From NCBI GenBank assembly GCA_016933055.1, contig JAFGBS010000031.1:30001-62000 (forward strand): a stretch of DNA of 32,000 nucleotides, in the 5' to 3' direction. Shown here piece after piece: positions 6,677-21,765 of this stretch. A program made the translations under genes and the position numbers. The notes under the pieces are model-generated. The model was not told the DNA's origin and did not search any database. It saw nothing but the letters and a program-made list of their open reading frames with translations. The number at the start of each line of letters is the position of its first letter. Position 1 is the first letter of the stretch. Origin of the DNA: Promethearchaeota archaeon (GTDB lineage Archaea; Asgardarchaeota; Lokiarchaeia; Sigyniarchaeales; Promethearchaeaceae).

Positions 6677-8248
6677 ATGTCTAATATCAAGACGAAGTTG
6701 CCATTGACACGATCCGCTGGAATATTATTACATCCCACTTCCCTTTGGACTCCCTATGGGGTTGGTGATTTTGGACCTAGTGCGTACACATTTATCCAAT
6801 ATCTAAAAAAAGCCGGTCAGAAATATTGGCAAATATTACCACTTGGACCTACCGGTTATTTAGACTCACCTTATCAATGTATCTCTGCTTTTGCTGGTAA
6901 TCCTTTGTTAATTTCTCCCGATGAACTGGTAAATAATGAATTATTAACAAAAAAAGAAGCGATTGAATGTTTAGAAGATGAAAACCATAGAATAAAGTGG
7001 ACTCTTTCCGAGCAAGTTGATTATTCGAAGGTACGAATAGCAAAATACCGAATGTTTGAAATTGCTTATAATAATCTGTTTTGTAAAGAGGATTCGGATG
7101 TAATGGAAAAATCTGCAAATTTAAAGAAGCACCAAACAGAATTTGATGAGTTTTGTATTATACAGCAGGATTGGATAGACAACTTTGTCACTTATTTTTC
7201 GTTGAAAAATGCTCATGAATTAAAATCTTGGGTAGAATGGCCGGCGAAATACCGAGATCACGACGAAAAAGCCATAGAAAAATGGAGCACTGAACATGAA
7301 GATGAACTAAGGTATTTTAAATTCATCCAATGGATCTTTCAGAAACAATGGAATAATTTAGTTGCATATGCACACAAAAATGATGTAAATATCATTGGAG
7401 ATATGCCAATTTTTGTTGCTCATGATTCAGCAGATGTTTGGGCTAATCGAGAATTATTTTTACTTAACGACAATGGTTCCTTACAATACCAAGCAGGTGT
7501 ACCTCCCGATTACTTTTCTAAAACTGGTCAGTTATGGGGCAATCCTCTCTATAATTGGGATTTGATCAAGAAACAGCATTTTTCTTGGTGGATCCGGAGA
7601 TTTAAGAGAAATCAAGAATTAGCCGATTGGATACGAGTCGATCATTTCCGGGGTTTCGAGGCTTATTGGAGAGTAGAAGGGGATGCATCTAATGCAGTGA
7701 AAGGGGAATGGGTAAAGGGACCAGGAATTTCCCTATTTAACGCTGTTTATAAAAAACTAGGAAATTTGCAGATCCTTGCCGAAAATTTGGGAATTATTAC
7801 TCCAGAAGTTGAACAACTACGGTTAAAATATGGTTTTCCAGGAATGTATGTTTTGCAGTTCGCATTTACTGGTGAAAAAACTAACCCGCATCTTCCATAC
7901 AATTATGAACCTTTGAATTTTGCTTATACGGGAACGCACGACAACAATACGACACTTGGATGGTGGGAACAAGAAGCCACTGATGGTGAAAAACAATATT
8001 TTTCAACTTATCTAAGTCATGGAGTCTCAGATATAACAGAAGAATTGATTAAAATGCTTTATAAATCCGTAGCACTAGTTGCCATTGTACCTTTGCAAGA
8101 TTTACTCCGCCAATCTGCGAAATATCGAATGAATACACCGAGTGTACCTGAAGGAAATTGGAAGTATCGAACTCCTTCACTTGGACTGGATGAAGAGAAA
8201 GCAAAGTGGTTAAATTTTTTAGCAAATGTTTACGGTCGGGTAGAATAA
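6677..8248 (+). CDS. malQ: 4-alpha-glucanotransferase (amylomaltase, GH77)
   Basis: RSAGILLHPTSL, YWQILPLGP, SPYQCISAFAGNP, IIGDMPIFV, GQLWGNPLY, catalytic RVDHFRGF / AENLG / YTGTHDN, RMNTP...GNWKYR. Confidence 0.97.
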   Translation: MSNIKTKLPLTRSAGILLHPTSLWTPYGVGDFGPSAYTFIQYLKKAGQKYWQILPLGPTGYLDSPYQCISAFAGNPLLISPDELVNNELLTKKEAIECLEDENHRIKWTLSEQVDYSKVRIAKYRMFEIAYNNLFCKEDSDVMEKSANLKKHQTEFDEFCIIQQDWIDNFVTYFSLKNAHELKSWVEWPAKYRDHDEKAIEKWSTEHEDELRYFKFIQWIFQKQWNNLVAYAHKNDVNIIGDMPIFVAHDSADVWANRELFLLNDNGSLQYQAGVPPDYFSKTGQLWGNPLYNWDLIKKQHFSWWIRRFKRNQELADWIRVDHFRGFEAYWRVEGDASNAVKGEWVKGPGISLFNAVYKKLGNLQILAENLGIITPEVEQLRLKYGFPGMYVLQFAFTGEKTNPHLPYNYEPLNFAYTGTHDNNTTLGWWEQEATDGEKQYFSTYLSHGVSDITEELIKMLYKSVALVAIVPLQDLLRQSAKYRMNTPSVPEGNWKYRTPSLGLDEEKAKWLNFLANVYGRVE

Positions 8249-8273: not shown

Positions 8274-8810
8274 TTAATTTTCCTCTTTTGATTCGAGTTC
8301 TTTTAGCTCTCTAATTTTCTTAATTAACCGGTCAATTTCTATATAATAAAACACCTTTGGTGTTAATTTCACTATATTTTGGTTTTTTTCATATACAATA
8401 AATCCCAATTCGTGTAAATCGTGTAAATCCTTTGCAATGTCTTTTTTATTCCGTAAATCTTGTATCTTCGTTCCGGTAATTGCTGGAGTCTTACTCACAT
8501 ATAAAATCAAAATAGTAAATAACGTTGCGGAAAGACGGGGGGTCAGAACCTTATCTGTAGCACCACCAAAGTTAGATTCCATCTGATCTTGAAAGCCAAT
8601 ATACCAATGAGAATTCATGGGATTAAATTTCACGCTTAAACCTAAAGGGAATATAGTTTTGTTGAATTCTTGTAGCAGATTCCACAATTTATATTCTGCA
8701 TTACGATCCGAAAAACCTAATTTTGAACACAATTCGTCTTTATTCGCTCCTATATTTTGTGCATCCTTCTTCCTTGATAGTAAATATATTAACACTTCAG
8801 CTTCATTCAT
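8274..8810 (-). CDS. KITE-like tandem winged-helix subunit (ScpB/Nse1/MksE-like)
   Basis: Two WH-like halves: (VLIYLL...KDELCSKLG...LLQEFNKTIFPLGLSVKF...WYIG) and (LSATLFTILIL...DLHDLHELGFI...VKLTP). 4-bp overlap with the kleisin gene; last gene of the SMC operon. Confidence 0.7.
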   Translation of the reverse strand: MNEAEVLIYLLSRKKDAQNIGANKDELCSKLGFSDRNAEYKLWNLLQEFNKTIFPLGLSVKFNPMNSHWYIGFQDQMESNFGGATDKVLTPRLSATLFTILILYVSKTPAITGTKIQDLRNKKDIAKDLHDLHELGFIVYEKNQNIVKLTPKVFYYIEIDRLIKKIRELKELESKEEN

Positions 8811-9520
8811 TCGTTTTTCTCATCCTTATATTCTTCCAATCTATTAGTATTTTTAATAAAAACAACCTTCTTTCTCTGAATCAAATACAAACAAAATACA
8901 AATCTTTTGTAGCGAATCTCAGTATTAGTGGTCGTATCTATTATATCAGATAGTTTTTGGGGGAGAGTGGGTAATAACTTTAGCTCAAATGAATTCAATT
9001 CTCTTTCAAAATGAACATCATCAATCAAAAAATCTATTTCTCCCATATTGAATTCCTCTTTAGCAATCTCAGAGAAATCCGGGAACTCTACCGATTCCCA
9101 AATCTTTTTCTTATTAGTTAACTTCACAAAAGAATCGTAAAGAGTATTTAAATTGATATCTTCTATAATGAATGGAGGTTTATACAAAGCTTGGAAGCAT
9201 TCATGCAAAGAATTCTGGGATTCAACTTTAATGATAGACTCAAAATCCTCCTCTCCCCCTATAGCGGAAATATATGCTTGAATATCTTGGATTTTTTTAC
9301 CGAACAAGTCCGAAGAACTCTTAAATTCAGTAACAATTGTCTTTAAATTCTTATTATTAACAATCTCTTGGATAGAATGGAAAATAGGAACAAAATCTAT
9401 GTCTTGGGTAGAAATTTTTCCTAATTGGATATCTTTTTTCAAGTTCTTCAGGTAAATCTCTACATCTCGTAAAGTTCGTAATTGAATTTGTTGTACAGAA
9501 GATGGATTTATCTCATTCAT
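8807..9520 (-). CDS. ScpA-like kleisin subunit
   Basis: N-terminal GKISTQDIDFVPIF resembles ScpA GKIDPWDIDI; C-terminal cap-WH RYKRFVFCLYLIQRKKVVF resembles ScpA V.TFLALLEL.K.G.I; 4-bp overlap with smc. Confidence 0.75.
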   Translation of the reverse strand: MNEINPSSVQQIQLRTLRDVEIYLKNLKKDIQLGKISTQDIDFVPIFHSIQEIVNNKNLKTIVTEFKSSSDLFGKKIQDIQAYISAIGGEEDFESIIKVESQNSLHECFQALYKPPFIIEDINLNTLYDSFVKLTNKKKIWESVEFPDFSEIAKEEFNMGEIDFLIDDVHFERELNSFELKLLPTLPQKLSDIIDTTTNTEIRYKRFVFCLYLIQRKKVVFIKNTNRLEEYKDEKNE

Positions 9521-12500
9521 AAGGGAATAACCGTGCTTACTTCTTCAGATCCATTTTTTGCTATTCCTAATACACAATCTGCAAGATCCACTAGGGTACT
9601 AGATGCATTAGGGGTAATCATAATAAATTGAACCCCATTATCTGTAACATCCTTGATCAATTTTGATACATTCTCGGTATTACTCTTGTCCAAAAACATC
9701 TGTGCTTCATCAAATATACATAGGGGTGAAGGATTCAAGTTCTGGAGAGTTAACATTAAAGTTATTGCAAACAAAGTCTGTTCTCCTCCACTTAAAGTGG
9801 ATAAACTGCGCGATGCCTCATTAAAATGAACGTGGATATCCACTCCAAGCGCTTCAAATTTATCAGTTAAATTAAGCGAACCCTTACGATTAATTCCTAT
9901 TTTTTGGAAACGAGAGTTAATGTTATTTTCAATAGTCCGTAAATGCCCCCTAAATAAGGAAAAATACTGTTCTTGAAGTTTTTCTACGGAAATGTGCGCT
10001 TCTTTAATTTCTATTTCTAATTGTTTCTTTTTTTGGGCACTTCGTTTCAGTTGTTGTTCTAGTTCCTTTTTTCTTTCCAAAATTTGGTCTGTCACATCAT
10101 AATAATCTCGTAACTTCTCGTAAATGACTTTGAGATCATTCTCTACTTCTTCAACTGATCGTTCCTGATAATCTTTTCCAAGTTCTGCCACTTCTATACT
10201 TATATTGTCCACCATTTTCTGCTTTTCATATATTTGAGCTTCAGAATATTCGATTTTTATCTTTATCCTATCAATTGTTTGTATGATGGAATTCAAATTG
10301 TCATGTTCCGTTTGGATGACCTCTTGAATTTTTATATTTTTATCGTTTAATGTTAATTGTTCTCGAGTAATAGATTCAATAGAATTTCGTAATCTCTCCA
10401 ACTCATTGATTGCTTGAAGCATTCTAGTATTACCGCTTTTTAACTTATCTTCATATTTTTCTAGCTCCATTTCATGGGCTTTCAGTTCGGTCGAATAGTT
10501 TTCAATTTTTAATGTATATAGATTCTCTTCCTGTGTCTTGTTTGTAAGATTATTATTCATCTCTTGTATTTTATTATCCAGTCCTTCAAATTTGACTTGG
10601 AATTCTTCAATGAATGCATCCATTTCATCCAAGTTAGCTGGTAATTTCTCTTGAACTTGAATTATTTCATTTTGAATGGAATTAAGTTTCTCTAAGAAAG
10701 AATCCGAATTTGCAATCAAGTTACTTTTAGTTTCCAATAAACTATCTTTTTTATTTATAGTGATGGTCAATTTTTTGTAGTTATACGTAATGATATTGAT
10801 TTTCTGGAGACGTTCCTCATATAATTTAGAAGCTCGCTCTAATTTTGTAAACTGTTGCCGATATTCATCAATTTTTCCCCGATTTTCCATAAGTTGGTCA
10901 TGTAATTTTTTTACTGCGCGTTTTTGTTCAATCGGATTGGAATAACTTTTACCGGAATCTGACGCACGAGATTCCAAAACATATTCATATGAACGGATAA
11001 CGGTGCCATCTAATGCGACTACTCGTCCTTTATGATTATGTTGGTTAATAAAGTCATAACCAACACTCCTATCGTTGACCAATACGGTATTTCGACAAAT
11101 TGACACAAGTACTTTTTTTACATCGTCATGATGAGATAAAGGTGTTATAAAATTCGACAAATAACCGAATACTCCATCTTCTTTAACTATCTCTTTATAG
11201 CTTCGAATTTCCCTATCAAAAGGCTGATATATATTACATCTAGCACCCGTACGCTTTATTAAATCATGAACCAACATGAAGTCTTGCTTATTTTTTGCAA
11301 TGAAGGAATTTAAAACATATTTGCTCAGGATACTATCTACGGCAAGAGAAATTTCGGGATTAAACTCGATAAAATCAATTATAGGACCAATTACATCAAG
11401 ATTGCGGGTCTGAATTTCTTGTATTAAATTTATTAAATTTTGACTTTTCGGCATTTCTTTCATCAAAACAGAACTTTTAAGATGTTCTAACTGTTTTTCT
11501 AAATCCCGATTCTCATTTTCTTTTTGAGAGATGTTCTGGGAGAGTTTTTCTAAAGCAAAAAAAATTTTTTGTTTTTTTTTATTAAGGGATTCTAGTGTAT
11601 TTTTCTCAGGTTCTTGTAAAAACCATTTATCTTTTTCCAATTCCTGTTTAAGGTAACGGATTTCGCTCATTGAATTTTTAATATCGCGTTCAATCGCTTC
11701 AAGTTGTAAGTCGTTCTCTTTCGTTTTATATTCAATCTCTGACTTCTTCTTCTTTAGGTTTTCATAATATTCCATTATATCATGGAATTTCTTTTTTGTT
11801 CGTTGATGAGACTCAAATTCGTCCATTAATGCCTTCCTTTGCTCTTGTAGAACAGAAAACTCAAACTTGTATTTTTTTATTTCAGATAGACAAATTTTCT
11901 GCTCCTCAGTAAATCTTTGCTTTTCAGCAGTCAAAAGCTTGATTTTACTTTTTGCCCTCAAAATTTTATCAGCCAAATTGTCCTTATCGGATTGCCATCG
12001 GCTTATCTCGGCATCCAAATTTCTCTCTTTTACTTTTTCGTCTAACAATGTCTGGGAGAGTTCGGTTATTATCGTAGTATTTTCCTTTATCATAGCTTCC
12101 AAGTTTTGAATTGTACCTTCAATCTTTTCTTTATCATCCTCTAAACTATCAATATTTTGCTCGTAGTTCCCGATCTCAGTTCGGATATTTTTGATTTCCT
12201 CTAGGATCATAACCCGATTTAACCAAGTCCTCTCTTTTTCAAACTGCTCTCGTTGAATTTCTAACTCTTTTTTTTCTTTGAGCCTAACTACTTGGGGTGC
12301 AAGCAATCCAATTTCATATTTTGCTGATTTATCCATCAAATTCAAGCTTTTAATTTGATTATCTAGATCATTGATGGTAGTTTTATTCTCAATGATTTCC
12401 TCACGTAATGGATGCAATCCCAGTCCCCGCTCCAGATAATCACAAATCTGCATTTTTTCCATATTTTTGATGTTTGTGATATTTCCCTGAGATACAAAAG

Positions 12501-12903
12501 CAAATACATTATCGGGATTGACTCCAAAATCTGCAAGAAGATTTTGTACAGTAGAGGCTGTACATTTTTTAAGTTTAGAATCTGCACCAATTTGAATCTG
12601 ATAGAATGGAGATTGCCCTTTAAAAATAGTTCTGCGAATTTTTATTAGAGTTTTTTTATTCCGTAAATGGATTTCCGCATAACCCGCTTCTTGCCCTATC
12701 CGAATAAACTCAGACCACGTTTTTGCCCGGCCATCCTTTTCGTTGGATCCTAAAGAAAACTTGATCCCTTGAAAGATTGTAGATTTCCCTGCTCCATTTG
12801 GACCAGTTATAACCGTGAATCCTTTATGGAAGGGGACTTCATCTACTGCAAAAGAATTAAAATTATGGAGGATAATCCGTTCAAGTATTGGTTTTGTAGC
12901 CAC
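9517..12903 (-). CDS. smc: SMC-family ATPase with Smc5/6-like features
   Basis: Walker A GPNGAGKS, Q-loop FVSQG, long coiled coils, central hinge (IGPIIDFIE...LAVDSIL...SFIAKN...GRVVALDG), signature LSGGEQ, Walker B CIFDEA, D-loop FLD, terminal QFIMITP. GTG start. Confidence 0.95.
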   Translation of the reverse strand: MATKPILERIILHNFNSFAVDEVPFHKGFTVITGPNGAGKSTIFQGIKFSLGSNEKDGRAKTWSEFIRIGQEAGYAEIHLRNKKTLIKIRRTIFKGQSPFYQIQIGADSKLKKCTASTVQNLLADFGVNPDNVFAFVSQGNITNIKNMEKMQICDYLERGLGLHPLREEIIENKTTINDLDNQIKSLNLMDKSAKYEIGLLAPQVVRLKEKKELEIQREQFEKERTWLNRVMILEEIKNIRTEIGNYEQNIDSLEDDKEKIEGTIQNLEAMIKENTTIITELSQTLLDEKVKERNLDAEISRWQSDKDNLADKILRAKSKIKLLTAEKQRFTEEQKICLSEIKKYKFEFSVLQEQRKALMDEFESHQRTKKKFHDIMEYYENLKKKKSEIEYKTKENDLQLEAIERDIKNSMSEIRYLKQELEKDKWFLQEPEKNTLESLNKKKQKIFFALEKLSQNISQKENENRDLEKQLEHLKSSVLMKEMPKSQNLINLIQEIQTRNLDVIGPIIDFIEFNPEISLAVDSILSKYVLNSFIAKNKQDFMLVHDLIKRTGARCNIYQPFDREIRSYKEIVKEDGVFGYLSNFITPLSHHDDVKKVLVSICRNTVLVNDRSVGYDFINQHNHKGRVVALDGTVIRSYEYVLESRASDSGKSYSNPIEQKRAVKKLHDQLMENRGKIDEYRQQFTKLERASKLYEERLQKINIITYNYKKLTITINKKDSLLETKSNLIANSDSFLEKLNSIQNEIIQVQEKLPANLDEMDAFIEEFQVKFEGLDNKIQEMNNNLTNKTQEENLYTLKIENYSTELKAHEMELEKYEDKLKSGNTRMLQAINELERLRNSIESITREQLTLNDKNIKIQEVIQTEHDNLNSIIQTIDRIKIKIEYSEAQIYEKQKMVDNISIEVAELGKDYQERSVEEVENDLKVIYEKLRDYYDVTDQILERKKELEQQLKRSAQKKKQLEIEIKEAHISVEKLQEQYFSLFRGHLRTIENNINSRFQKIGINRKGSLNLTDKFEALGVDIHVHFNEASRSLSTLSGGEQTLFAITLMLTLQNLNPSPLCIFDEAQMFLDKSNTENVSKLIKDVTDNGVQFIMITPNASSTLVDLADCVLGIAKNGSEEVSTVIPL

Positions 12904-12908
12904 AATAT

Positions 12909-14129
12909 CTACCTTTCTGCAATTTTTTGGATACGATCAATGGTTTTTTTTGCATTAGTCAATTTTAATAATGCACGGTTTGGTGCATCTTTAAGAATAA
13001 AAGCGTAATCAGCGAGAATAGTGCGATCTAAATCATCTAATTTTCTCGCTTGATCTATCTTCTCAAGGATAAGGGTTAATTCCTCGAATTTCGTTGCGGC
13101 TGCATATTGATATAGTTGTGAAGAAGTAAAACTATCTAATTCAGCTAATCCTAAACCTTTAAAGGATGTTACAGAATTAGATTGAAATGATCCATCATTT
13201 AGTGGGTGGGTCTCTCGATCATTTTTTCCTACTTGAGGAATTTTAGAATTTGTAAAATCTTTATACGAATTATAACTACTAAGTGGTCGAATTTGATTAT
13301 TTTTGATAAGTTCTGCGAAAATTTCCCCCGTCAATGGAATTTTAGTTAGCAAGGTTCTGTTACTATCGGACGATGGCTCTGTTTCTTGTTCTACTTGCTC
13401 TTCATCCTTTTCTCTCTCTAATTGAGCTTTAAATTCTGTATAGTTAAGAATTTTCCATTGGATGAAGGCAATATCCACTAATCGTTTTAAATCGTTCACA
13501 TTCCATGAATCTTCTGTTAATTCAGATAAATAAGTGATATCAACCGTGTGAATGGCTAAATTTTCTAGTAACCTTTCAAAAATCTCAATACGTTGAATTT
13601 TTGTTGGATAGGGTATAGTAAATACAATATCTAAGTATTCAATGATCTCTTGAGGAATATCATTATGTATAATTCTTAGAAGAAAGAAATAATCAGGGTT
13701 CTGCTTTAGCATTTCTCTAATTCGCTTTACTAAGTGGATCACCTTTAGTTTTTCTTCAACGGAGTCAAAATCTGGATTATTCAGATAAATAATTTGTTTT
13801 TGAGGAACCGATCCGACTGACACAGATGCTTTTTGCTCACTTTCTTCAGAATCGAGTTGATTGATGCTTTTACTTAAGTATTCAAGCTGCTTTTCATACT
13901 CAGAATTGTCCCAATTTAATTCCAAAACACTGAACATATTGAAAATTTCATCTTTGATGAATTCACAAAATTCTGAACCCAAACTATCCTTTACAAGAAT
14001 AATCTGAGGGATGATGTCAGATTTATCGTATTTTTCATCTGAAAACATCTCGAACATAGAAATTATATGCGTATACACGTCCAAATTGCATAATAGTTTA
14101 GTACCACTTTCGTTCATAATTATGGTCAT
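12909..14129 (-). CDS. Degenerate (probably inactive) AAA+ ATPase-fold protein, first gene of SMC operon
   Basis: Recognisable AAA lid LDIVFTIPYPTKIQRIEIFERLL...VDITYLSELTEDSWNVNDLKRLVDIA; Walker A position reads IILVKDSLGSEF and Walker B position IIYLNNPD; 5-bp gap to smc. Confidence 0.75.
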   Translation of the reverse strand: MTIIMNESGTKLLCNLDVYTHIISMFEMFSDEKYDKSDIIPQIILVKDSLGSEFCEFIKDEIFNMFSVLELNWDNSEYEKQLEYLSKSINQLDSEESEQKASVSVGSVPQKQIIYLNNPDFDSVEEKLKVIHLVKRIREMLKQNPDYFFLLRIIHNDIPQEIIEYLDIVFTIPYPTKIQRIEIFERLLENLAIHTVDITYLSELTEDSWNVNDLKRLVDIAFIQWKILNYTEFKAQLEREKDEEQVEQETEPSSDSNRTLLTKIPLTGEIFAELIKNNQIRPLSSYNSYKDFTNSKIPQVGKNDRETHPLNDGSFQSNSVTSFKGLGLAELDSFTSSQLYQYAAATKFEELTLILEKIDQARKLDDLDRTILADYAFILKDAPNRALLKLTNAKKTIDRIQKIAER

Positions 14130-14688
14130 ATAATTCGGTTTTAGTATTGTTTTTCATAGAGAGAAAAGTTTGTTATTATCTTTATCTGCCCTTATATTCT
14201 TATACCAAGTCAACTTAAAAAGATTTTTGCTCTCTCTCAATAAATTTGAATATAATAAGCGTTTGTGCTTCATAAACACTCCCTTTTTCGACTACTTTTA
14301 AAGTATAACCCAATGTCAATGTTTGGGGGATTTTCAAACAAATTGTCAAAAGCCATTGAATTAGATCAATTTTCTTCATTCCATGGTACGAATTTTCCAC
14401 TTGTGGGTTTTTTTCCCCTTAGTTTCTCTATGTTTGAGTTTGGGATAAATTATTGCTGACATCAAAGGGAAGCTATTTTCTGCTGAATTTGTATAGATTT
14501 ATCATGAAATTCTTCATAATCCGGATATTCATAAACAACCAAAATATAAGTTTATATCAAATTTCATGGAGATTTTCGAAAGATTTCACCCAATTGATAT
14601 AAAATTAGTTGTTTGAAAATTTTTGGTAATAATGGATTGTAATCTGCTCCCAATAATTTTGAGTTTGGATTTATCTGCACTTAGTTAG

Positions 14689-14739
14689 AAATCATGATTT
14701 TATATGATTTTATTAAAGATATATCGGAAATCTTTAATA
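14689..14739. promoter_or_regulatory. Palindromes upstream of the thiolase gene
   Basis: Perfect AAATCATGATTT at 14689-14700 and TATTAAAGAT-N9-ATCTTTAATA at 14711-14739, ending 46 nt before ATG 14786. Confidence 0.4.
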
Positions 14740-14785
14740 TTTGTCATAATAACGAAACACATAACTTCTAAGCATGTGAGGAATA

Positions 14786-16048
14786 ATGGGAAAATTAGCA
14801 AGACGAGTAGCTATAGTCGGGGCTGGTATGTCGAAATTCGGTGCCCACTATCCAATCAAACAAAACCGTGATCTGTGGCAGGACGCTCTCATTAACACGA
14901 TTGAGTCTGTAGATCATGGAGTAAATTTACAAAAGGATGTTGAAGAACTTTATTTAGGTAACTTTTCTGCAGACTTGTTTAATCATGAAGCACATCTCGC
15001 ACCATTAATGGCGCAATTAGCGGGAATAAATCCCAAACCTGCAGCTCGGATTGAAGCTGCATGTTGTTCAAGTGGCATAGCTATGAGATATGGTGTTTTA
15101 GCGGTTGCATCTGGAATACATGACTTCGTTTTGGCAGGTGGGATTGAGACCATGACAGAAGTACCCACCGTTGATGTTACAGACTCATTGGCTGCAGCAG
15201 CGGATACAAGATTAGAATATCCGGCTGGTGCCACTTTTCCTGGTTTGTATGCGGCAGTAGCGACTGCGCATATGCATAAATACGGGACAACTGAGGAAAA
15301 TTTCTTTGACGTTGCGATAAAAAATTATGATAATGGTGCAGAAAATCCTTATGCTCAAGTACAAATGACCATTGAACAAGTGATAGAGGGTAAAATCACC
15401 AAAGCGAAAAAACGTGGTTTAGAACCTCCATCATGGAATAATCCCTATGATTTTTTGCGATCGGAATCAAATCCCTATATAGCTTATCCATTACGTTTAT
15501 TTGATTGCTCATTGGTTACTGATGGAGCAGCATGTGTATTGTTAGCCTCGGAAGACATTGCCAGAAAATACACAGATACACCCATTTGGATCACCGGAAC
15601 TGGTCAAGGTAGTGATACTCTAGCTTTACATGATCGTGATTCTTTGACCTCATTTCTATCAGCGAGAACTGCAGCACAGACTGCGTTTAAAATGAGTGGA
15701 TTAGAACCAAAGGACATTCAAATTGCTGAAGTTCATGATTGCTTTACAATAGCGGAGTTGGTCGCATTGGAGGATCTTGGTTTTTATAAACCTGGAGAAG
15801 CTGCAGCTGCAGTATCTGCGGGTGAAACAAAACGAGATGGAATCCTTCCAATCAATACAAGTGGAGGATTAAAAACAAAAGGACATCCCGTGGGAGCTAC
15901 GGGTACCGCTCAAGCAGTTGAGATTTTCAAACAAATGCGAGGTATCGCAGAACGTAATAGACAAGTGAAAAAGGATATAGAAAGAGCTTTGTCTCATAAT
16001 GTAGGAGGTAGTGGGGCATCTTCGGTTGTCCACATATACGAGAAATAG
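14786..16048 (+). CDS. Archaeal/SCP2-type thiolase (acetyl-CoA acetyltransferase)
   Basis: RRVAIVGAGMSKFG, catalytic Cys in IEAACCSSG, EVHDCF, NTSGGLK, GHPVGATG, HNVGG. Confidence 0.95.
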   Translation: MGKLARRVAIVGAGMSKFGAHYPIKQNRDLWQDALINTIESVDHGVNLQKDVEELYLGNFSADLFNHEAHLAPLMAQLAGINPKPAARIEAACCSSGIAMRYGVLAVASGIHDFVLAGGIETMTEVPTVDVTDSLAAAADTRLEYPAGATFPGLYAAVATAHMHKYGTTEENFFDVAIKNYDNGAENPYAQVQMTIEQVIEGKITKAKKRGLEPPSWNNPYDFLRSESNPYIAYPLRLFDCSLVTDGAACVLLASEDIARKYTDTPIWITGTGQGSDTLALHDRDSLTSFLSARTAAQTAFKMSGLEPKDIQIAEVHDCFTIAELVALEDLGFYKPGEAAAAVSAGETKRDGILPINTSGGLKTKGHPVGATGTAQAVEIFKQMRGIAERNRQVKKDIERALSHNVGGSGASSVVHIYEK

Positions 16049-18146: not shown

Positions 18147-19157
18147 TTAATTTTTTTGTACACCACAAGAGGGAGGTGCAAATTTTGAAATTTTCCTTTG
18201 TGAATCTTCAGTTTCAACAGTTTTCGTCAACCCTGACCATTTCACATTTTTTACTCCTGTAGATTTCGCAATTTCAAAAAAATATTCCATTTCTTCGGGT
18301 AACAATAAATCTAAGTCGTTGCATGCCCATTCCATGTCCATACGAGCATACTTTGCTTTGGCTAGATTATTAAATGCTAATAAATCCCAGCGATCAATTT
18401 TATTATCTAATTCATTGACGATAAAATTTCCAATTTCTCTAATATTTTTTTCTGACGCCGTATAAGTTGGAATTATCGGAGTTCTTACCCATATTTGTCG
18501 ATTTTCCTTAACAAGCCATTTGATATTTTCTAAGATTTGTGTATTTGATACACCTGTAAATTTTTGGTGCTTAATATCATCAAATTCCTTAAGATCATAC
18601 AACCATAAATCTACATAGGGAAAAATTTGTGCATATTTCTCTTTGGGTAGGTATCCGCTTAAATCTAAAGCAGTGTGAAATCCATCTTCCTTGCATCTTT
18701 TGAAAAATTCCGTTACAAAGTCAGATTGAACAGCAGCTTCTCCCCCGGAAGCCGTTATCCCCCCTCTTGATTTCACATAATACGCTCTGTCCTTCGCAAC
18801 TTCATTAAGTAGATCTTCAACTGACCAATATTCCCCTAGCATTCGCAATGCCGTTCCAGGGCACGCTTCTACGCATTCTCCACAAGCAATGCACTCATCT
18901 CGATCGATATGCATTCCTTCTTCATCGAGAGATAAAGCTTGTTGTTTACATAAATCAATACATGTCCTGCAACCGATGCACTTCACTTGGAACCATTGGA
19001 TTGAGGGCTTTTTGAATAGAGATTCTGGATTATGACACCATACACACCGAAGGGGGCACATTTTAAAAAAAACTGTTGTACGAATCCCTGGTCCGTCTTC
19101 AGTGGACATTTTCTGTATCTCAAATATGTACCCTTGTATGGATTCCATCATTTTCAT
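18147..19157 (-). CDS. Glycyl-radical enzyme activating enzyme (radical SAM, with 2x[4Fe-4S] ferredoxin insert)
   Basis: DGPGIRTTVFFKMCPLRCVWCHNPE (CxxxCxxC); CIGCRTCIDLC and CIACGECVEAC; GGITASGGE; IWVRTPIIP. Start could be 19157, 19151 or 19148. Confidence 0.95.
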   Translation of the reverse strand: MKMMESIQGYIFEIQKMSTEDGPGIRTTVFFKMCPLRCVWCHNPESLFKKPSIQWFQVKCIGCRTCIDLCKQQALSLDEEGMHIDRDECIACGECVEACPGTALRMLGEYWSVEDLLNEVAKDRAYYVKSRGGITASGGEAAVQSDFVTEFFKRCKEDGFHTALDLSGYLPKEKYAQIFPYVDLWLYDLKEFDDIKHQKFTGVSNTQILENIKWLVKENRQIWVRTPIIPTYTASEKNIREIGNFIVNELDNKIDRWDLLAFNNLAKAKYARMDMEWACNDLDLLLPEEMEYFFEIAKSTGVKNVKWSGLTKTVETEDSQRKISKFAPPSCGVQKN

Positions 19158-19181
19158 CTATCGGATAAAATTAAAGAAAAA

Positions 19182-21689
19182 TTAAAAATTGTGCATCTCA
19201 CGTTTTATTATCTCGTCTTGTAATTCTCTTCCTATAGCTACAAAATATGTATTATAACCAGTTACCCTTACAAGTAAATGTGGATAATTTTCAGGGTGTT
19301 TCTGTGCATCTATTAGCATATTAGCATCTAGAATGTTAATTTGTAGAGCAGTCCCCCCATTTTCAATATATCCACGTAGGTATGCTTTGAATTTCTCTTT
19401 GGATTCTGGTTCTCGTAACATACTCGGATTAAATGTAATGGTGTGAGAGGCTCCATTTGGCAAGTAATTCACATATTTACCATCGTCAGTTTTCCCACCC
19501 AATGCATTTCCCACGGAATTTGTTACTGATGTTGGACCATTAATATCTGCACCGTTTGTGGGACAAATCGCGTTCGAAAGGAATGTGTTTGCCAATCTTC
19601 CATTAGGAGTAGCAGGAGTATAAGCAGCATCCTCTCCTGCCCAATAATTCCATGATAGCATACCACCGCGGAATTGGAAATCAGTATCCGTTTTGTATTT
19701 GAAAGTTTCTGAAGACCAAGTTTCCATGATGTTGCGAGCAAGCTCATCCGCTTCATCCAAATCATTACCAAATTTTGGACCTCGATTTTTTAGAGTGGTT
19801 TGCATGATAATATATTCTCTTTTACCTTGGAAGTTATTCACTAACGCTTCCTTCAATTCTGCAATCGTAAATTTCTGTTCATCATACACAAAATGCTTTA
19901 TTGCGAGAAGGGAATCCACGAGTGTCGCAAATCCAACTCCTTCGATGGTAATAAATCGGATTTCAGGACCTCCATTACGAATATCTAATCCTTGCTCAAC
20001 ACATCCTCGAACTAAAGTTGAAAGGTATGGAGTTGGCAGAAAGGCAGCACGTAAATTCTCGGTTTTATTATATACTTCGACCGTATATTGAATAATATGT
20101 TTTATCTGTTGTTCCCAAGCATTCCAAAATTCCTCCCAAGTTGCGAATTCTTCGGGATTTCCCGTTTTGGGTCCGAATTGAATCAGATTCTTTTCAGGTT
20201 TACCTTTAAAGAATTTGCTGGCACCATTCCAAAGAGTGAGTTCAACACTTTTTGCCAGATTAGGATTGCAGTTAACAGTCCCGGATCTATCATTTCCTTG
20301 CATCGTGTTTTCTAAACAACCAACACACGCATAATCCCACGCATCTTCTTTTGGAATTCCTTCAAGTACCATTCCTTCGATCGACCGTTCATCAAAATTT
20401 AATATGAAAGGTGCGCCTTGAGATCGCGTTATCATATCTACTAGTGTATCCAAAAGTTCATCGGGAGTGTTTCGATGTAAACGAACGTTCGGTTTTGGTT
20501 CTAATATTGGACTCCATTCATCAATTACTTCCAACATGGTATAGGTTAGTTCATTAGAAAGGTCTTCTCCATTAGGACCGCAACCGGATAACGTTAACAA
20601 TTGACCAAATCCTGCAGTTATACCTTGGTTGCCTCCTACACGCATTTGTCCGTCATATGCAGTGTTGCAATGGAACCAAAATGACCCTAAAATGTCTTTT
20701 GCGAATTCTTTGGTGATTAAATCTTTTTCTAGAACATCTTTCTTATAATAAGGATATAAATATTCATCAATACGACCAAAGCTATCGCCGGGACCAGGAT
20801 AGGATTCCTCCGCCATGATTAGCATATGTGCCATCCATAATGATTGCACAGCTTGCCAGAAGGTTTGGGCAGGTTCCCATGGAACGATTTCCAAGTTCTT
20901 TGCCATTTGCTCTAATTCCCCTTTACGCTCCAGATCTTCTGTTTCTTCTGCCACACGACGACATTCTTCCGCATATTTTTCAGCTAATTTCTTGGGTATC
21001 AAAGTTGCATGAATCATAGCCCGGACTTCTTCACCTTTAGCACCTCGTTTTTCGCGATCTGAGAGTTCATTATACTTATCCTGAGCTAGTTTGTGCACGT
21101 ATTTGAACCCTTTATTTATAATTGTGGGAAAATCTGGAATCAAATGACCACCTGTGGCACCTAAATTACCAAATCCGTATTCATGGAATTTCCAAACCGA
21201 AGGTCGGATATCTTTTACTAATTTTTTGTTAAATTCTTCCTCTTCCTTTTGTGTGAAACACTTGCTTAATTGCAAATTAAAACGACTTCCAGCAAGCAAT
21301 GAGGGTCCAACAATTTCTTGAGGAGTATTGTTCACCATCGCTTCCTCAAAAAAAATCATTCGCCGTTCGGGAAGTGATTTTTCCCAGAAAATTTTTGGTA
21401 ATTTGACGGGTTTACCCATTAAATCTATGGAAGAACCAAAAGGTCCTCGTTTCTTCTTCCCCATAAACCCCATTGCTTCGGGTACGATGTAAAAATCTAA
21501 CTCCGCCCATATTCTGTCCCATTCGACGCCTGTGGAGTACGGGTCATATTCATTATTCCACTCACGATCTAAACCCCTAAAATAATAGTCTCGCAACCAT
21601 TTCGAACGTGGAGATAGATCATGTGGTTCTGCAAGATTGTACTTGCTTTTCAAAGAAGTAGTTTCTTGTGGTTCTGAAGCATTACTCAT
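19182..21689 (-). CDS. Glycyl radical enzyme (PFL2/eliminase-like superfamily), substrate unknown
   Basis: Cys loop DYACVGCLEN; glycyl loop LLVRVTGYNTYF; PWEPAQTFWQAVQ, GRIDEYLYPY, KFGND, ATPNGR. ATG at 21689 preferred over the TTG at 21701. Confidence 0.95.
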   Translation of the reverse strand: MSNASEPQETTSLKSKYNLAEPHDLSPRSKWLRDYYFRGLDREWNNEYDPYSTGVEWDRIWAELDFYIVPEAMGFMGKKKRGPFGSSIDLMGKPVKLPKIFWEKSLPERRMIFFEEAMVNNTPQEIVGPSLLAGSRFNLQLSKCFTQKEEEEFNKKLVKDIRPSVWKFHEYGFGNLGATGGHLIPDFPTIINKGFKYVHKLAQDKYNELSDREKRGAKGEEVRAMIHATLIPKKLAEKYAEECRRVAEETEDLERKGELEQMAKNLEIVPWEPAQTFWQAVQSLWMAHMLIMAEESYPGPGDSFGRIDEYLYPYYKKDVLEKDLITKEFAKDILGSFWFHCNTAYDGQMRVGGNQGITAGFGQLLTLSGCGPNGEDLSNELTYTMLEVIDEWSPILEPKPNVRLHRNTPDELLDTLVDMITRSQGAPFILNFDERSIEGMVLEGIPKEDAWDYACVGCLENTMQGNDRSGTVNCNPNLAKSVELTLWNGASKFFKGKPEKNLIQFGPKTGNPEEFATWEEFWNAWEQQIKHIIQYTVEVYNKTENLRAAFLPTPYLSTLVRGCVEQGLDIRNGGPEIRFITIEGVGFATLVDSLLAIKHFVYDEQKFTIAELKEALVNNFQGKREYIIMQTTLKNRGPKFGNDLDEADELARNIMETWSSETFKYKTDTDFQFRGGMLSWNYWAGEDAAYTPATPNGRLANTFLSNAICPTNGADINGPTSVTNSVGNALGGKTDDGKYVNYLPNGASHTITFNPSMLREPESKEKFKAYLRGYIENGGTALQINILDANMLIDAQKHPENYPHLLVRVTGYNTYFVAIGRELQDEIIKREMHNF

Positions 21690-21765
21690 AATCCTAACCA
21701 AACCTTAAATACTCTAATCATAAAATAGGATTGAGAATTAATAATAGTTGCGAAATAAAATTTAT

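Follow-up and report, generated by a model that had tools for sequence, protein, structure and literature searches.

What is a protein of the AAA family doing at the head of an operon that encodes an SMC complex? The question is raised by a 32,000-nucleotide stretch of the genome of a Promethearchaeota archaeon (GenBank assembly GCA_016933055.1, contig JAFGBS010000031.1, positions 30,001 to 62,000; hereafter the window, in whose coordinates positions are given), where four genes encode, in order, an AAA-like protein (P0001), an SMC protein (P0002), a kleisin (P0003) and a kite protein (P0004). SMC complexes are built from SMC, kleisin and kite or hawk subunits, and extra factors such as Nse5/6, Scc2/4, JetD and MatP are central to their loading, regulation and aiming. 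The answer that we favour, with moderate confidence, is that the operon probably encodes an Asgard SMC5/6-related complex with a non-catalytic, AAA-derived fourth subunit.

The four genes lie on the minus strand, as do all their features given below. Gene 1 is separated from gene 2 by a gap of 5 bp (12904-12908), the SMC and kleisin genes overlap by 4 bp (9517-9520) and the kleisin and kite genes by another 4 bp (8807-8810). This layout, which an earlier note on this DNA had described from the sequence alone, is borne out by the open reading frame (ORF) listing, and the absence of a nuclease, which that note had also pointed out, agrees with our searches of the four proteins with Pfam, NCBIfam and PADLOC, none of which returned a nuclease domain. 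The only rival ORF of at least 80 aa over the operon is a shadow ORF of 80 aa that lies within the SMC gene.

The first gene (12909..14129, ATG start) encodes the proposed fourth subunit, a pseudo-AAA protein of 406 aa. Its AlphaFold2 model has a pLDDT score of 80 and consists of an AAA fold, a disordered linker and a very confident three-helix domain (residues ~333-405 in the model). The classical AAA fold spans residues ~16-288 (13266..14084) and comprises an alpha/beta domain and a helical lid, for which the best Foldseek matches of the protein are Vps4, p97/Cdc48, Msp1 and Pex6 (E values of 7e-9 to 1e-7 and probability 1.00 against Vps4, p97 and Msp1). P0001 itself has no Pfam AAA match; the model (PF00004) is matched by 6/35 members of its family, and a hidden Markov model of these 35 members matches the genome's own Cdc48-like proteins at 3e-21. 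Its ancestry lies in the classical AAA clade, of the Vps4/Cdc48 kind. When motif status is read from an alignment with the live AAA proteins of the same genome, all catalytic motifs are found to be lost. Where live proteins have the Walker A sequence GPPGTGKT, P0001 has DSLGSEFC, with Phe at the position of the Lys, and the Walker B sequence IDE is replaced by LNN, i.e. the Asp-Glu pair has become Asn-Asn. Furthermore, the sensor-1 Asn is replaced, both Arg-finger positions are deleted and the aromatic-hydrophobic-Gly motif of pore loop 1 is missing. The description of the first gene as a dead AAA+ protein is thus upheld by both the fold match and the loss of motifs. Classical AAA ATPases (Vps4/CdvC, Cdc48/p97, Msp1, Pex6) share the large domain and lid with P0001, which differs from them not only in its lost motifs but also in having no N-terminal substrate domain and in carrying a family-specific domain at its C-terminus.

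This C-terminal three-helix domain (residues ~329-406, 12912..13145, pLDDT 87-97) is the signature of the family and follows a flexible linker (residues ~289-328, 13146..13265, pLDDT <50) whose length and composition differ among homologs. Its mean column identity is 57%, versus 27% across the whole protein. The family is acidic overall, with a mean net charge of -11, and has a basic last helix, the last 25 residues having a mean net charge of +5. Among 1.84 billion representative proteins, the domain is found in 108 clusters, at the C-terminus in nearly all of them, and the named members are all from Asgard archaea. Searches of the PDB and the Atlas found no relative of the domain and gave generic helical bundles alone.

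The second gene (9517..12903, GTG start) encodes an SMC protein of 1128 aa, the second SMC paralog of this genome, which matches Pfam SMC_N over residues 7-1116 at 1e-26. Its N-terminal head half (residues ~1-170, 12394..12903) holds the Walker A motif and Q-loop, and its C-terminal head half (residues ~955-1128, 9520..10041) the signature motif, Walker B and D-loop. The hinge (residues ~504-612, 11068..11394) gives a weak Pfam SMC_hinge match, below the cut-off (E 0.0029), with PF06470 precomputed on several homologs, and has conserved Gly and Pro residues: in a family alignment of 23 sequences G506 and P507 are invariant and G577 and G580 nearly so. The length of the protein and this central hinge fit the long, folded-back arms of SMC proteins. 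In the same alignment the Walker A motif GPNGAGKS (GxNGxGK) at residues 34-41, Q139, SGG at 1038-1040, D1065/E1066 and the D-loop Asp are invariant, and because of this P0002 is, judged by its sequence, a working ATPase. The homologs of P0002 are labelled Promethearchaeota, Lokiarchaeota and Thorarchaeota. Close to the C-terminus (residues 1096-1098, 9610-9618) the protein reads ITP after a conserved Gln, with the Pro invariant, where the canonical Smc of the genome has ISH (L002:2101-2520). Smc5 and Smc6 presumably have Thr-Pro at this position; when the final 53 residues of P0002 were searched against the PDB for a link between ITP and Smc5/6, noise alone came back.

P0002 is not the canonical Smc of this archaeon. 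It scores 235 bits against TIGR02169, for which the cut-off is 729.4, and 211 bits against the other canonical-Smc equivalog, TIGR02168, for which the cut-off is 567. The window belongs to contig C5 of a 3.76-Mb genome that is 91% complete, and a canonical Smc is encoded on contig C6 (G000:C6:131766-136148), where a 1480-aa open frame matches the canonical model in two pieces (304 and 286 bits), above the score of P0002. Next come a gene of 340 aa and then a true ScpB (PF04079, 117-120 bits), and there is no AAA gene in front of this Smc. Since canonical Smc and ScpB sit on this other contig, the window holds the second SMC system of the archaeon and not its canonical Smc-ScpAB; on this point the earlier note, which had called the SMC Smc5/6-like, is not refuted. 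The 1480-aa frame on contig C6 is unusually long in comparison with the ~1170-1190 aa of a typical prokaryotic Smc, and the 340-aa gene in the kleisin position has no match to the ScpA model of Pfam.

The two small proteins were identified through their predicted structures. The kleisin gene (8807..9520, ATG start) encodes 237 aa without any Pfam match, the ScpA model included. Its AlphaFold2 model has helices at residues 17-112, a low-confidence middle and a C-terminal winged helix (residues ~168-232, 8825..9019) with pLDDT >90 and the order helix-helix-helix-strand-strand. Searched against the Swiss-Prot part of the AlphaFold database (AFDB-Swiss-Prot), the model has kleisins (ScpA, EID3, NSMCE4A) as all of its top 30 matches (30/30), with probabilities of 0.77-0.97, and its top PDB matches include the C-terminal winged-helix chains of ScpA 4i99_C, 5h66_C and 5xg3_C. 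In the nearest Pfam-bearing Atlas cluster (score 0.92), Nse4_C is present in 18% of the members; ScpA clusters come next (0.82 and 0.79). The kite gene (8274..8810, ATG start) encodes a tandem winged-helix protein of 178 aa, whose Atlas model aligns to a ScpB family with a TM-score of 0.68 over residues 1-173, with a weak lead to MAGE (0.80). P0004 itself has Lrs14-type winged helix-turn-helix matches and no match to the ScpB model of Pfam; one of its homologs matches that model (SMC_ScpB, PF04079) at 1.2e-6. Thus, the models show a kleisin fold for P0003 and a kite fold for P0004, and together with the motifs of the SMC they corroborate the identification of genes 2-4 as SMC, kleisin and kite.

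The association of the AAA gene with this core is strict. In 20/20 larger Asgard loci, drawn from the genome families f1, f3, f4, f20 and f31, the AAA-like gene, the SMC gene, a ~220-aa gene and the kite gene keep their order and strand, and in 29/30 shorter loci a P0001 homolog shares the strand of the SMC homolog and stands immediately 5' of it, the one exception being cut by a contig end. The earlier note had suggested that the synteny of the AAA gene be checked in relatives, and it is kept at all loci examined apart from this one cut by a contig end. Because gene order and strand recur in this way, the operon is not a chance run of ORFs. Even the most distant proteins with the three-helix domain, including one from Baldrarchaeia and one from Helarchaeales, are encoded directly 5' of an SMC_N gene, which is then followed by two small genes, and in the divergent families f21, f28 and f6 a classical AAA gene abuts the SMC gene. 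When homologs are compared in pairs, identity in the AAA protein correlates with identity in SMC, kleisin and kite (r 0.93-0.97; 0.96 for SMC versus kite), which is a mark of co-inheritance and not proof of contact. The AAA gene is an old part of the Asgard operon.

The surroundings of the operon are also partly kept. In a genome of the same genus, ORFs of 524 and 401 aa (L039:966-2540 and 8697-9899) match in size and position the flanks of the operon in the window (6677-8248 and 14786-16048), and GH77 fragments lie beside the operon on one more distant contig (L077:6348-7885). This conservation fits a stable chromosomal location.

Some loci show variations on the arrangement. On three contigs from distant Asgard archaea, of which one bears the name Baldrarchaeia, the four-gene operon adjoins a gene for an ATPase of the AAA_5 type, 566-607 aa long (L060:13598-17083, L061:13503-15308, L062:4528-8014), and in two of the three it is followed by a ~600-700-aa gene without a Pfam match. 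The pair lies downstream of the operon in L060 and upstream of it in L062, where it overlaps the dead-AAA gene, and the L061 contig ends just past the ATPase gene; a pair of this kind is missing from the window. The kite is parted from the kleisin in a few genomes, by a 446-aa opposite-strand gene in L054:7394-9968 and by ~5 kb of other genes in G276:C7:279087-285221, so the operon is not always contiguous. At L040:3092-3391, L043:3149-3460 and L051:4674-7780 the SMC frame is either broken into two parts or begins ~300 bp too far downstream, and these cases look like frameshifts or assembly errors and not real truncations.

The distribution of the AAA protein matches that of the kite. In a sample of 400 Asgard genomes, a profile of the last 84 residues of the AAA protein found its C-terminal domain in 217, in single copy in all but two, and the kite profile found 225. 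The tallies by family run side by side, with the C-terminal domain and the kite in 13/13 and 13/13, 122/135 and 121/135, 4/4 and 4/4, 3/5 and 3/5, and 66/89 and 68/89 genomes, respectively. The first of these is the window's own family, f1, in which each of the 13 other sampled genomes has exactly one kite and one AAA C-terminal domain. Neither profile matched in families f13, f15, f16, f18 and f19, and a sample of five genomes from four families of this kind (f12, f13, f15 and f16) showed no close homolog of the P0002 paralog. In a wider protein search with the kite profile, the named matches among those listed were all from Asgard archaea, most being unnamed.

The lineages also differ in how far the AAA motifs have decayed. 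Walker A is kept in 1/74 full-length representatives of the P0001 family and is missing from the other 73. The one that keeps it, P0204 from Helarchaeales, has the sequence GPLGTGKS and a Walker B pair of Asp-Pro, and its gene overlaps the SMC gene by 4 bp. Walker A is likewise kept in three AAA proteins of the divergent families, whose genes abut the SMC gene: P0365 of f21, with Asp-Asn at Walker B and a weak match to the C-terminal domain; P0363 of f6, with Glu-Asn; and P0364 of f28, with Glu-Asp, the last two having a different C-terminal region. None of these four proteins has the canonical Asp-Glu pair of Walker B (0/4), and in three of them both Arg fingers are missing; P0365 may keep one Arg. 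The AAA partner was probably first a nucleotide-binding but non-hydrolysing protein, and because some lineages keep the Walker A Lys and none examined keeps the Walker B Asp-Glu, the full loss of motifs in Loki- and Thorarchaeia, the window included, is by this gradient best read as a late stage of decay. The Helarchaeales-type C-terminus was found in seven proteins, of which the three named ones are from Hel- or Lokiarchaeota. Compared with the three-helix domain by hhalign, it gave a probability <1%, and a motif of the form '..A.S.NY..' that seemed to be shared by both C-terminal types was not supported by hhalign and was dropped. In the f21 genome (L078:5570-8074, G117), whose AAA partner keeps Walker A, the SMC of the operon has 835 aa, in comparison with ~1120-1190 elsewhere, which suggests much shorter arms.

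How much of this system was already known? 'SMC5/6-related' archaeal SMCs were defined by Yoshinaga & Inagaki 2021 (PMC8665677), and van Hooff, Raas, Tromer & Eme (bioRxiv 10.1101/2024.01.07.573240) described a second archaeal set related to Smc5/6, Nse4 and Nse1/3, for which the operon passage of their supplement gives _495, _496 and _497 of P. syntrophicum as the genes. The idea of an undescribed system put forward in the earlier note does not hold for the SMC-kleisin-kite core, which has already been published as an archaeal SMC5/6-related operon, P. syntrophicum included. By inferred orthology, we equate the operon of the window with this published one, and the affinity of P0002 to Smc5/6 accordingly comes from the published trees, to which the structural and profile matches described here add weak leads. 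The upstream AAA-derived gene is not mentioned in the literature that we searched: 'AAA' is missing from the main text of van Hooff et al., the operon passage of their supplement names three genes alone, and a search for Asgard Smc5 and for SMC-kite systems with AAA+ proteins found no report of an AAA gene in an archaeal SMC operon.

Comparison with the named systems places the operon more precisely. The archaeal SMC5/6-related operon, like that of the window, has the gene order SMC, kleisin, kite and encodes an SMC paralog that is additional to canonical Smc-ScpB, but has three genes as published, whereas the window has four including the AAA-derived gene. Eukaryotic Smc5/6, with an SMC ring that is closed by an Nse4-type kleisin bearing kites and with an accessory factor that is neither kite nor hawk, would resemble the complex proposed for the window. 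It is made up of Smc5, Smc6, Nse4, Nse1, Nse3, Nse2 and Nse5/6, whereas the window has one SMC and one kite gene, implying homodimers, and no detected RING or SUMO-ligase domain, and its accessory protein is AAA-derived and not an alpha-solenoid like Nse5/6. Smc-ScpA-ScpB has the same three-part architecture, and its kleisin and kite folds match those of the window, but P0003 and P0004 miss the ScpA and ScpB models of Pfam and the genome has its own canonical set elsewhere. Finally, Wadjet (JetABCD), MksBEFG and MukBEF share with the window a compact operon of SMC, kleisin, kite and one extra gene. In Wadjet and MksBEFG, however, the extra gene is a Toprim nuclease, which that of the window is not, and the gene order differs; moreover, the operon of the window is not patchy in its distribution, being near-universal, single-copy and tracking host families.

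If the operon does encode an SMC5/6-related complex with an AAA-derived subunit, the SMC would form an ATP-hydrolysing homodimer closed by an Nse4/ScpA-type kleisin bearing a kite dimer, by analogy with Smc-ScpAB and Smc5/6. The product of gene 1, whose membership in the complex is suggested by synteny and co-occurrence, would be a non-catalytic fourth subunit derived from a classical AAA ATPase and predicted, from its motifs, to work without ATP binding, hydrolysis or substrate threading. Its C-terminal three-helix domain, on a flexible tether, may anchor the pseudo-AAA module to the SMC/kleisin part, and the module may serve as a regulatory or adaptor surface for head engagement, DNA loading or unloading. 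Such a role would be comparable to that of Nse5/6 in eukaryotic Smc5/6, with a separate ancestry; in yeast, Nse5/6 is reported to inhibit the Smc5/6 ATPase and to modulate DNA binding (PMC8327961).

Several observations weigh against this picture. Conserved neighbours can share a pathway without forming one complex. The three-helix domain has no recognisable relative of known function in the PDB or the Atlas, so its anchoring role is a guess, and in f6 and f28 the proteins, which are of the Helarchaeales type, end in another C-terminal domain, so the proposed anchor is not universal. Raw similarity to PDB entries puts the SMC nearer to prokaryotic Smc (Pyrococcus, 79 bits) than to Smc5 (42) or Smc6 (32), and because of this the SMC5/6-related label depends on the published trees. 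Lastly, eight genomes of family f3 have the kite only and nine the C-terminal domain only, nearly all of them being fragmented assemblies. A complex prediction that paired the three-helix domain with the kleisin and with the head, neck and joint halves of the SMC gave a score of 0.00, which is no answer and counts neither way.

The similarity to prokaryotic Smc is also the starting point for another explanation, namely that the SMC is a fast-evolving duplicate of canonical archaeal Smc-ScpAB without any special tie to Smc5/6, and that the AAA protein is an Asgard-specific addition irrelevant to the origin of eukaryotes. Indeed, not only does the SMC match Pyrococcus Smc best, but ScpB is the best structural match of the kite, the model of the kleisin fits ScpA no worse than Nse4, and van Hooff et al. 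could not reject the monophyly of all eukaryotic SMCs (p-AU 0.317; bioRxiv 10.1101/2024.01.07.573240). On the other hand, in two independent phylogenetic studies a second archaeal SMC groups with Smc5/6, its kleisin with Nse4 and its kite with Nse1/3, the P. syntrophicum operon is named explicitly in the published Smc5/6-related set, and the Nse4_C cluster lies ahead of the ScpA clusters for the kleisin; we therefore regard a mere duplicate as rather unlikely. That gene 1 is co-transcribed without encoding a stable subunit, its product being an assembly chaperone or a factor that acts in the same pathway on DNA or chromatin proteins, would fit synteny and co-occurrence equally well as a sign of pathway linkage, and an acidic protein with a basic last helix could make other contacts. 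However, the junctions of the translational-coupling type are kept across several Asgard classes, the gene is nearly always single-copy per genome and the protein evolves at a rate similar to that of the kleisin, and since these are traits more typical of stoichiometric partners, we consider this explanation unlikely.

Two further explanations concern the task of the AAA protein. In a more specific version of the accessory-subunit idea, it could be an adaptor, bound to the SMC complex, that brings in live ATPases of the Cdc48 or Vps4 type or assembles together with them, so that these extract or unload the SMC ring from DNA. Motif-dead members of the AAA family often persist as partners of live ones, P0001 is nearest in both fold and sequence to AAA proteins of the Cdc48/Vps4 type, and three Cdc48-like proteins, along with several classical AAA proteins of a single domain, are encoded in the same genome. 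Yet within the window the operon has no live AAA gene linked to it, the deleted Arg-finger positions mean that no arginine could be donated to a neighbouring subunit and there is no sign of P0001 entering a hexamer, which makes such an adaptor quite improbable in our view. A defence system that senses or restricts foreign DNA, akin to Wadjet, MksBEFG or Lamassu and using the AAA-like protein as its sensor or effector, would account for the Wadjet-like number of four genes (SMC, kleisin, kite and one extra), and eukaryotic Smc5/6 is known to restrict extrachromosomal DNA. PADLOC matches the SMC head with mad3 (116 bits), LmuB (94) and JetC (36), but these matches are generic; the three smaller proteins have no meaningful PADLOC match, none of the four matches JetD, MksG or a nuclease in PADLOC, and no effector domain of another kind was found. 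Furthermore, the operon occurs in one copy in 13/13 genomes of one and 122/135 of the other of the two nearest families, its chromosomal context is stable and its GC content (0.31-0.35) equals that of its flanks; Wadjet is reported, in a paper on Lokiarchaeum, from strain B36 and not from the related strain B35. Membership in Lamassu or Wadjet was rejected on these grounds, and the surveillance of extrachromosomal DNA that the earlier note had entertained is disfavoured by the near-universal, single-copy pattern that tracks host families. A defence role thus seems very improbable.

As for the rest of the window, the opposite-strand neighbours of the operon are metabolic genes, for a GH77 4-alpha-glucanotransferase and a thiolase. 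The thiolase gene is divergent from the operon, and the 656 bp of intergenic DNA that part the two (14130..14785) are presumed from the gene layout to hold the promoter; a scan for promoters and terminators of the bacterial type, which is ill-suited to archaea, gave results at or below the expectation from shuffled sequence. Further along, at 18147-21701 on the minus strand and unrelated to the operon, are genes for a glycyl-radical enzyme (PFL-like and Gly_radical domains, 839 aa) and its radical-SAM activase (336 aa).

We believe that an SMC5/6-related complex with an AAA-derived partner, if confirmed, would add a new class of SMC accessory factor, and would do so in the Asgard archaea, the presumed source of the Smc5/6 of eukaryotes. 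A bolder extension, for which we see little likelihood at present, is that an AAA protein able to bind but not to hydrolyse ATP was the original fourth subunit of the Smc5/6-type complex, a loader or regulator in the Asgard ancestors of eukaryotes, which in Loki- and Thorarchaeia decayed into a scaffold free of nucleotide and which, on the stem of the eukaryotes, gave up its function to Nse5/6. The decay series itself, from proteins that keep Walker A and have lost the Walker B Glu to proteins that have lost all motifs, offers a clean natural case of an ATPase turned scaffold. The operon is very probably present in Asgard archaea that are in culture (Lokiarchaeum, Promethearchaeum), and the size of its proteins allows reconstitution, so that what regulated the pre-eukaryotic Smc5/6-type complex is open to direct test.

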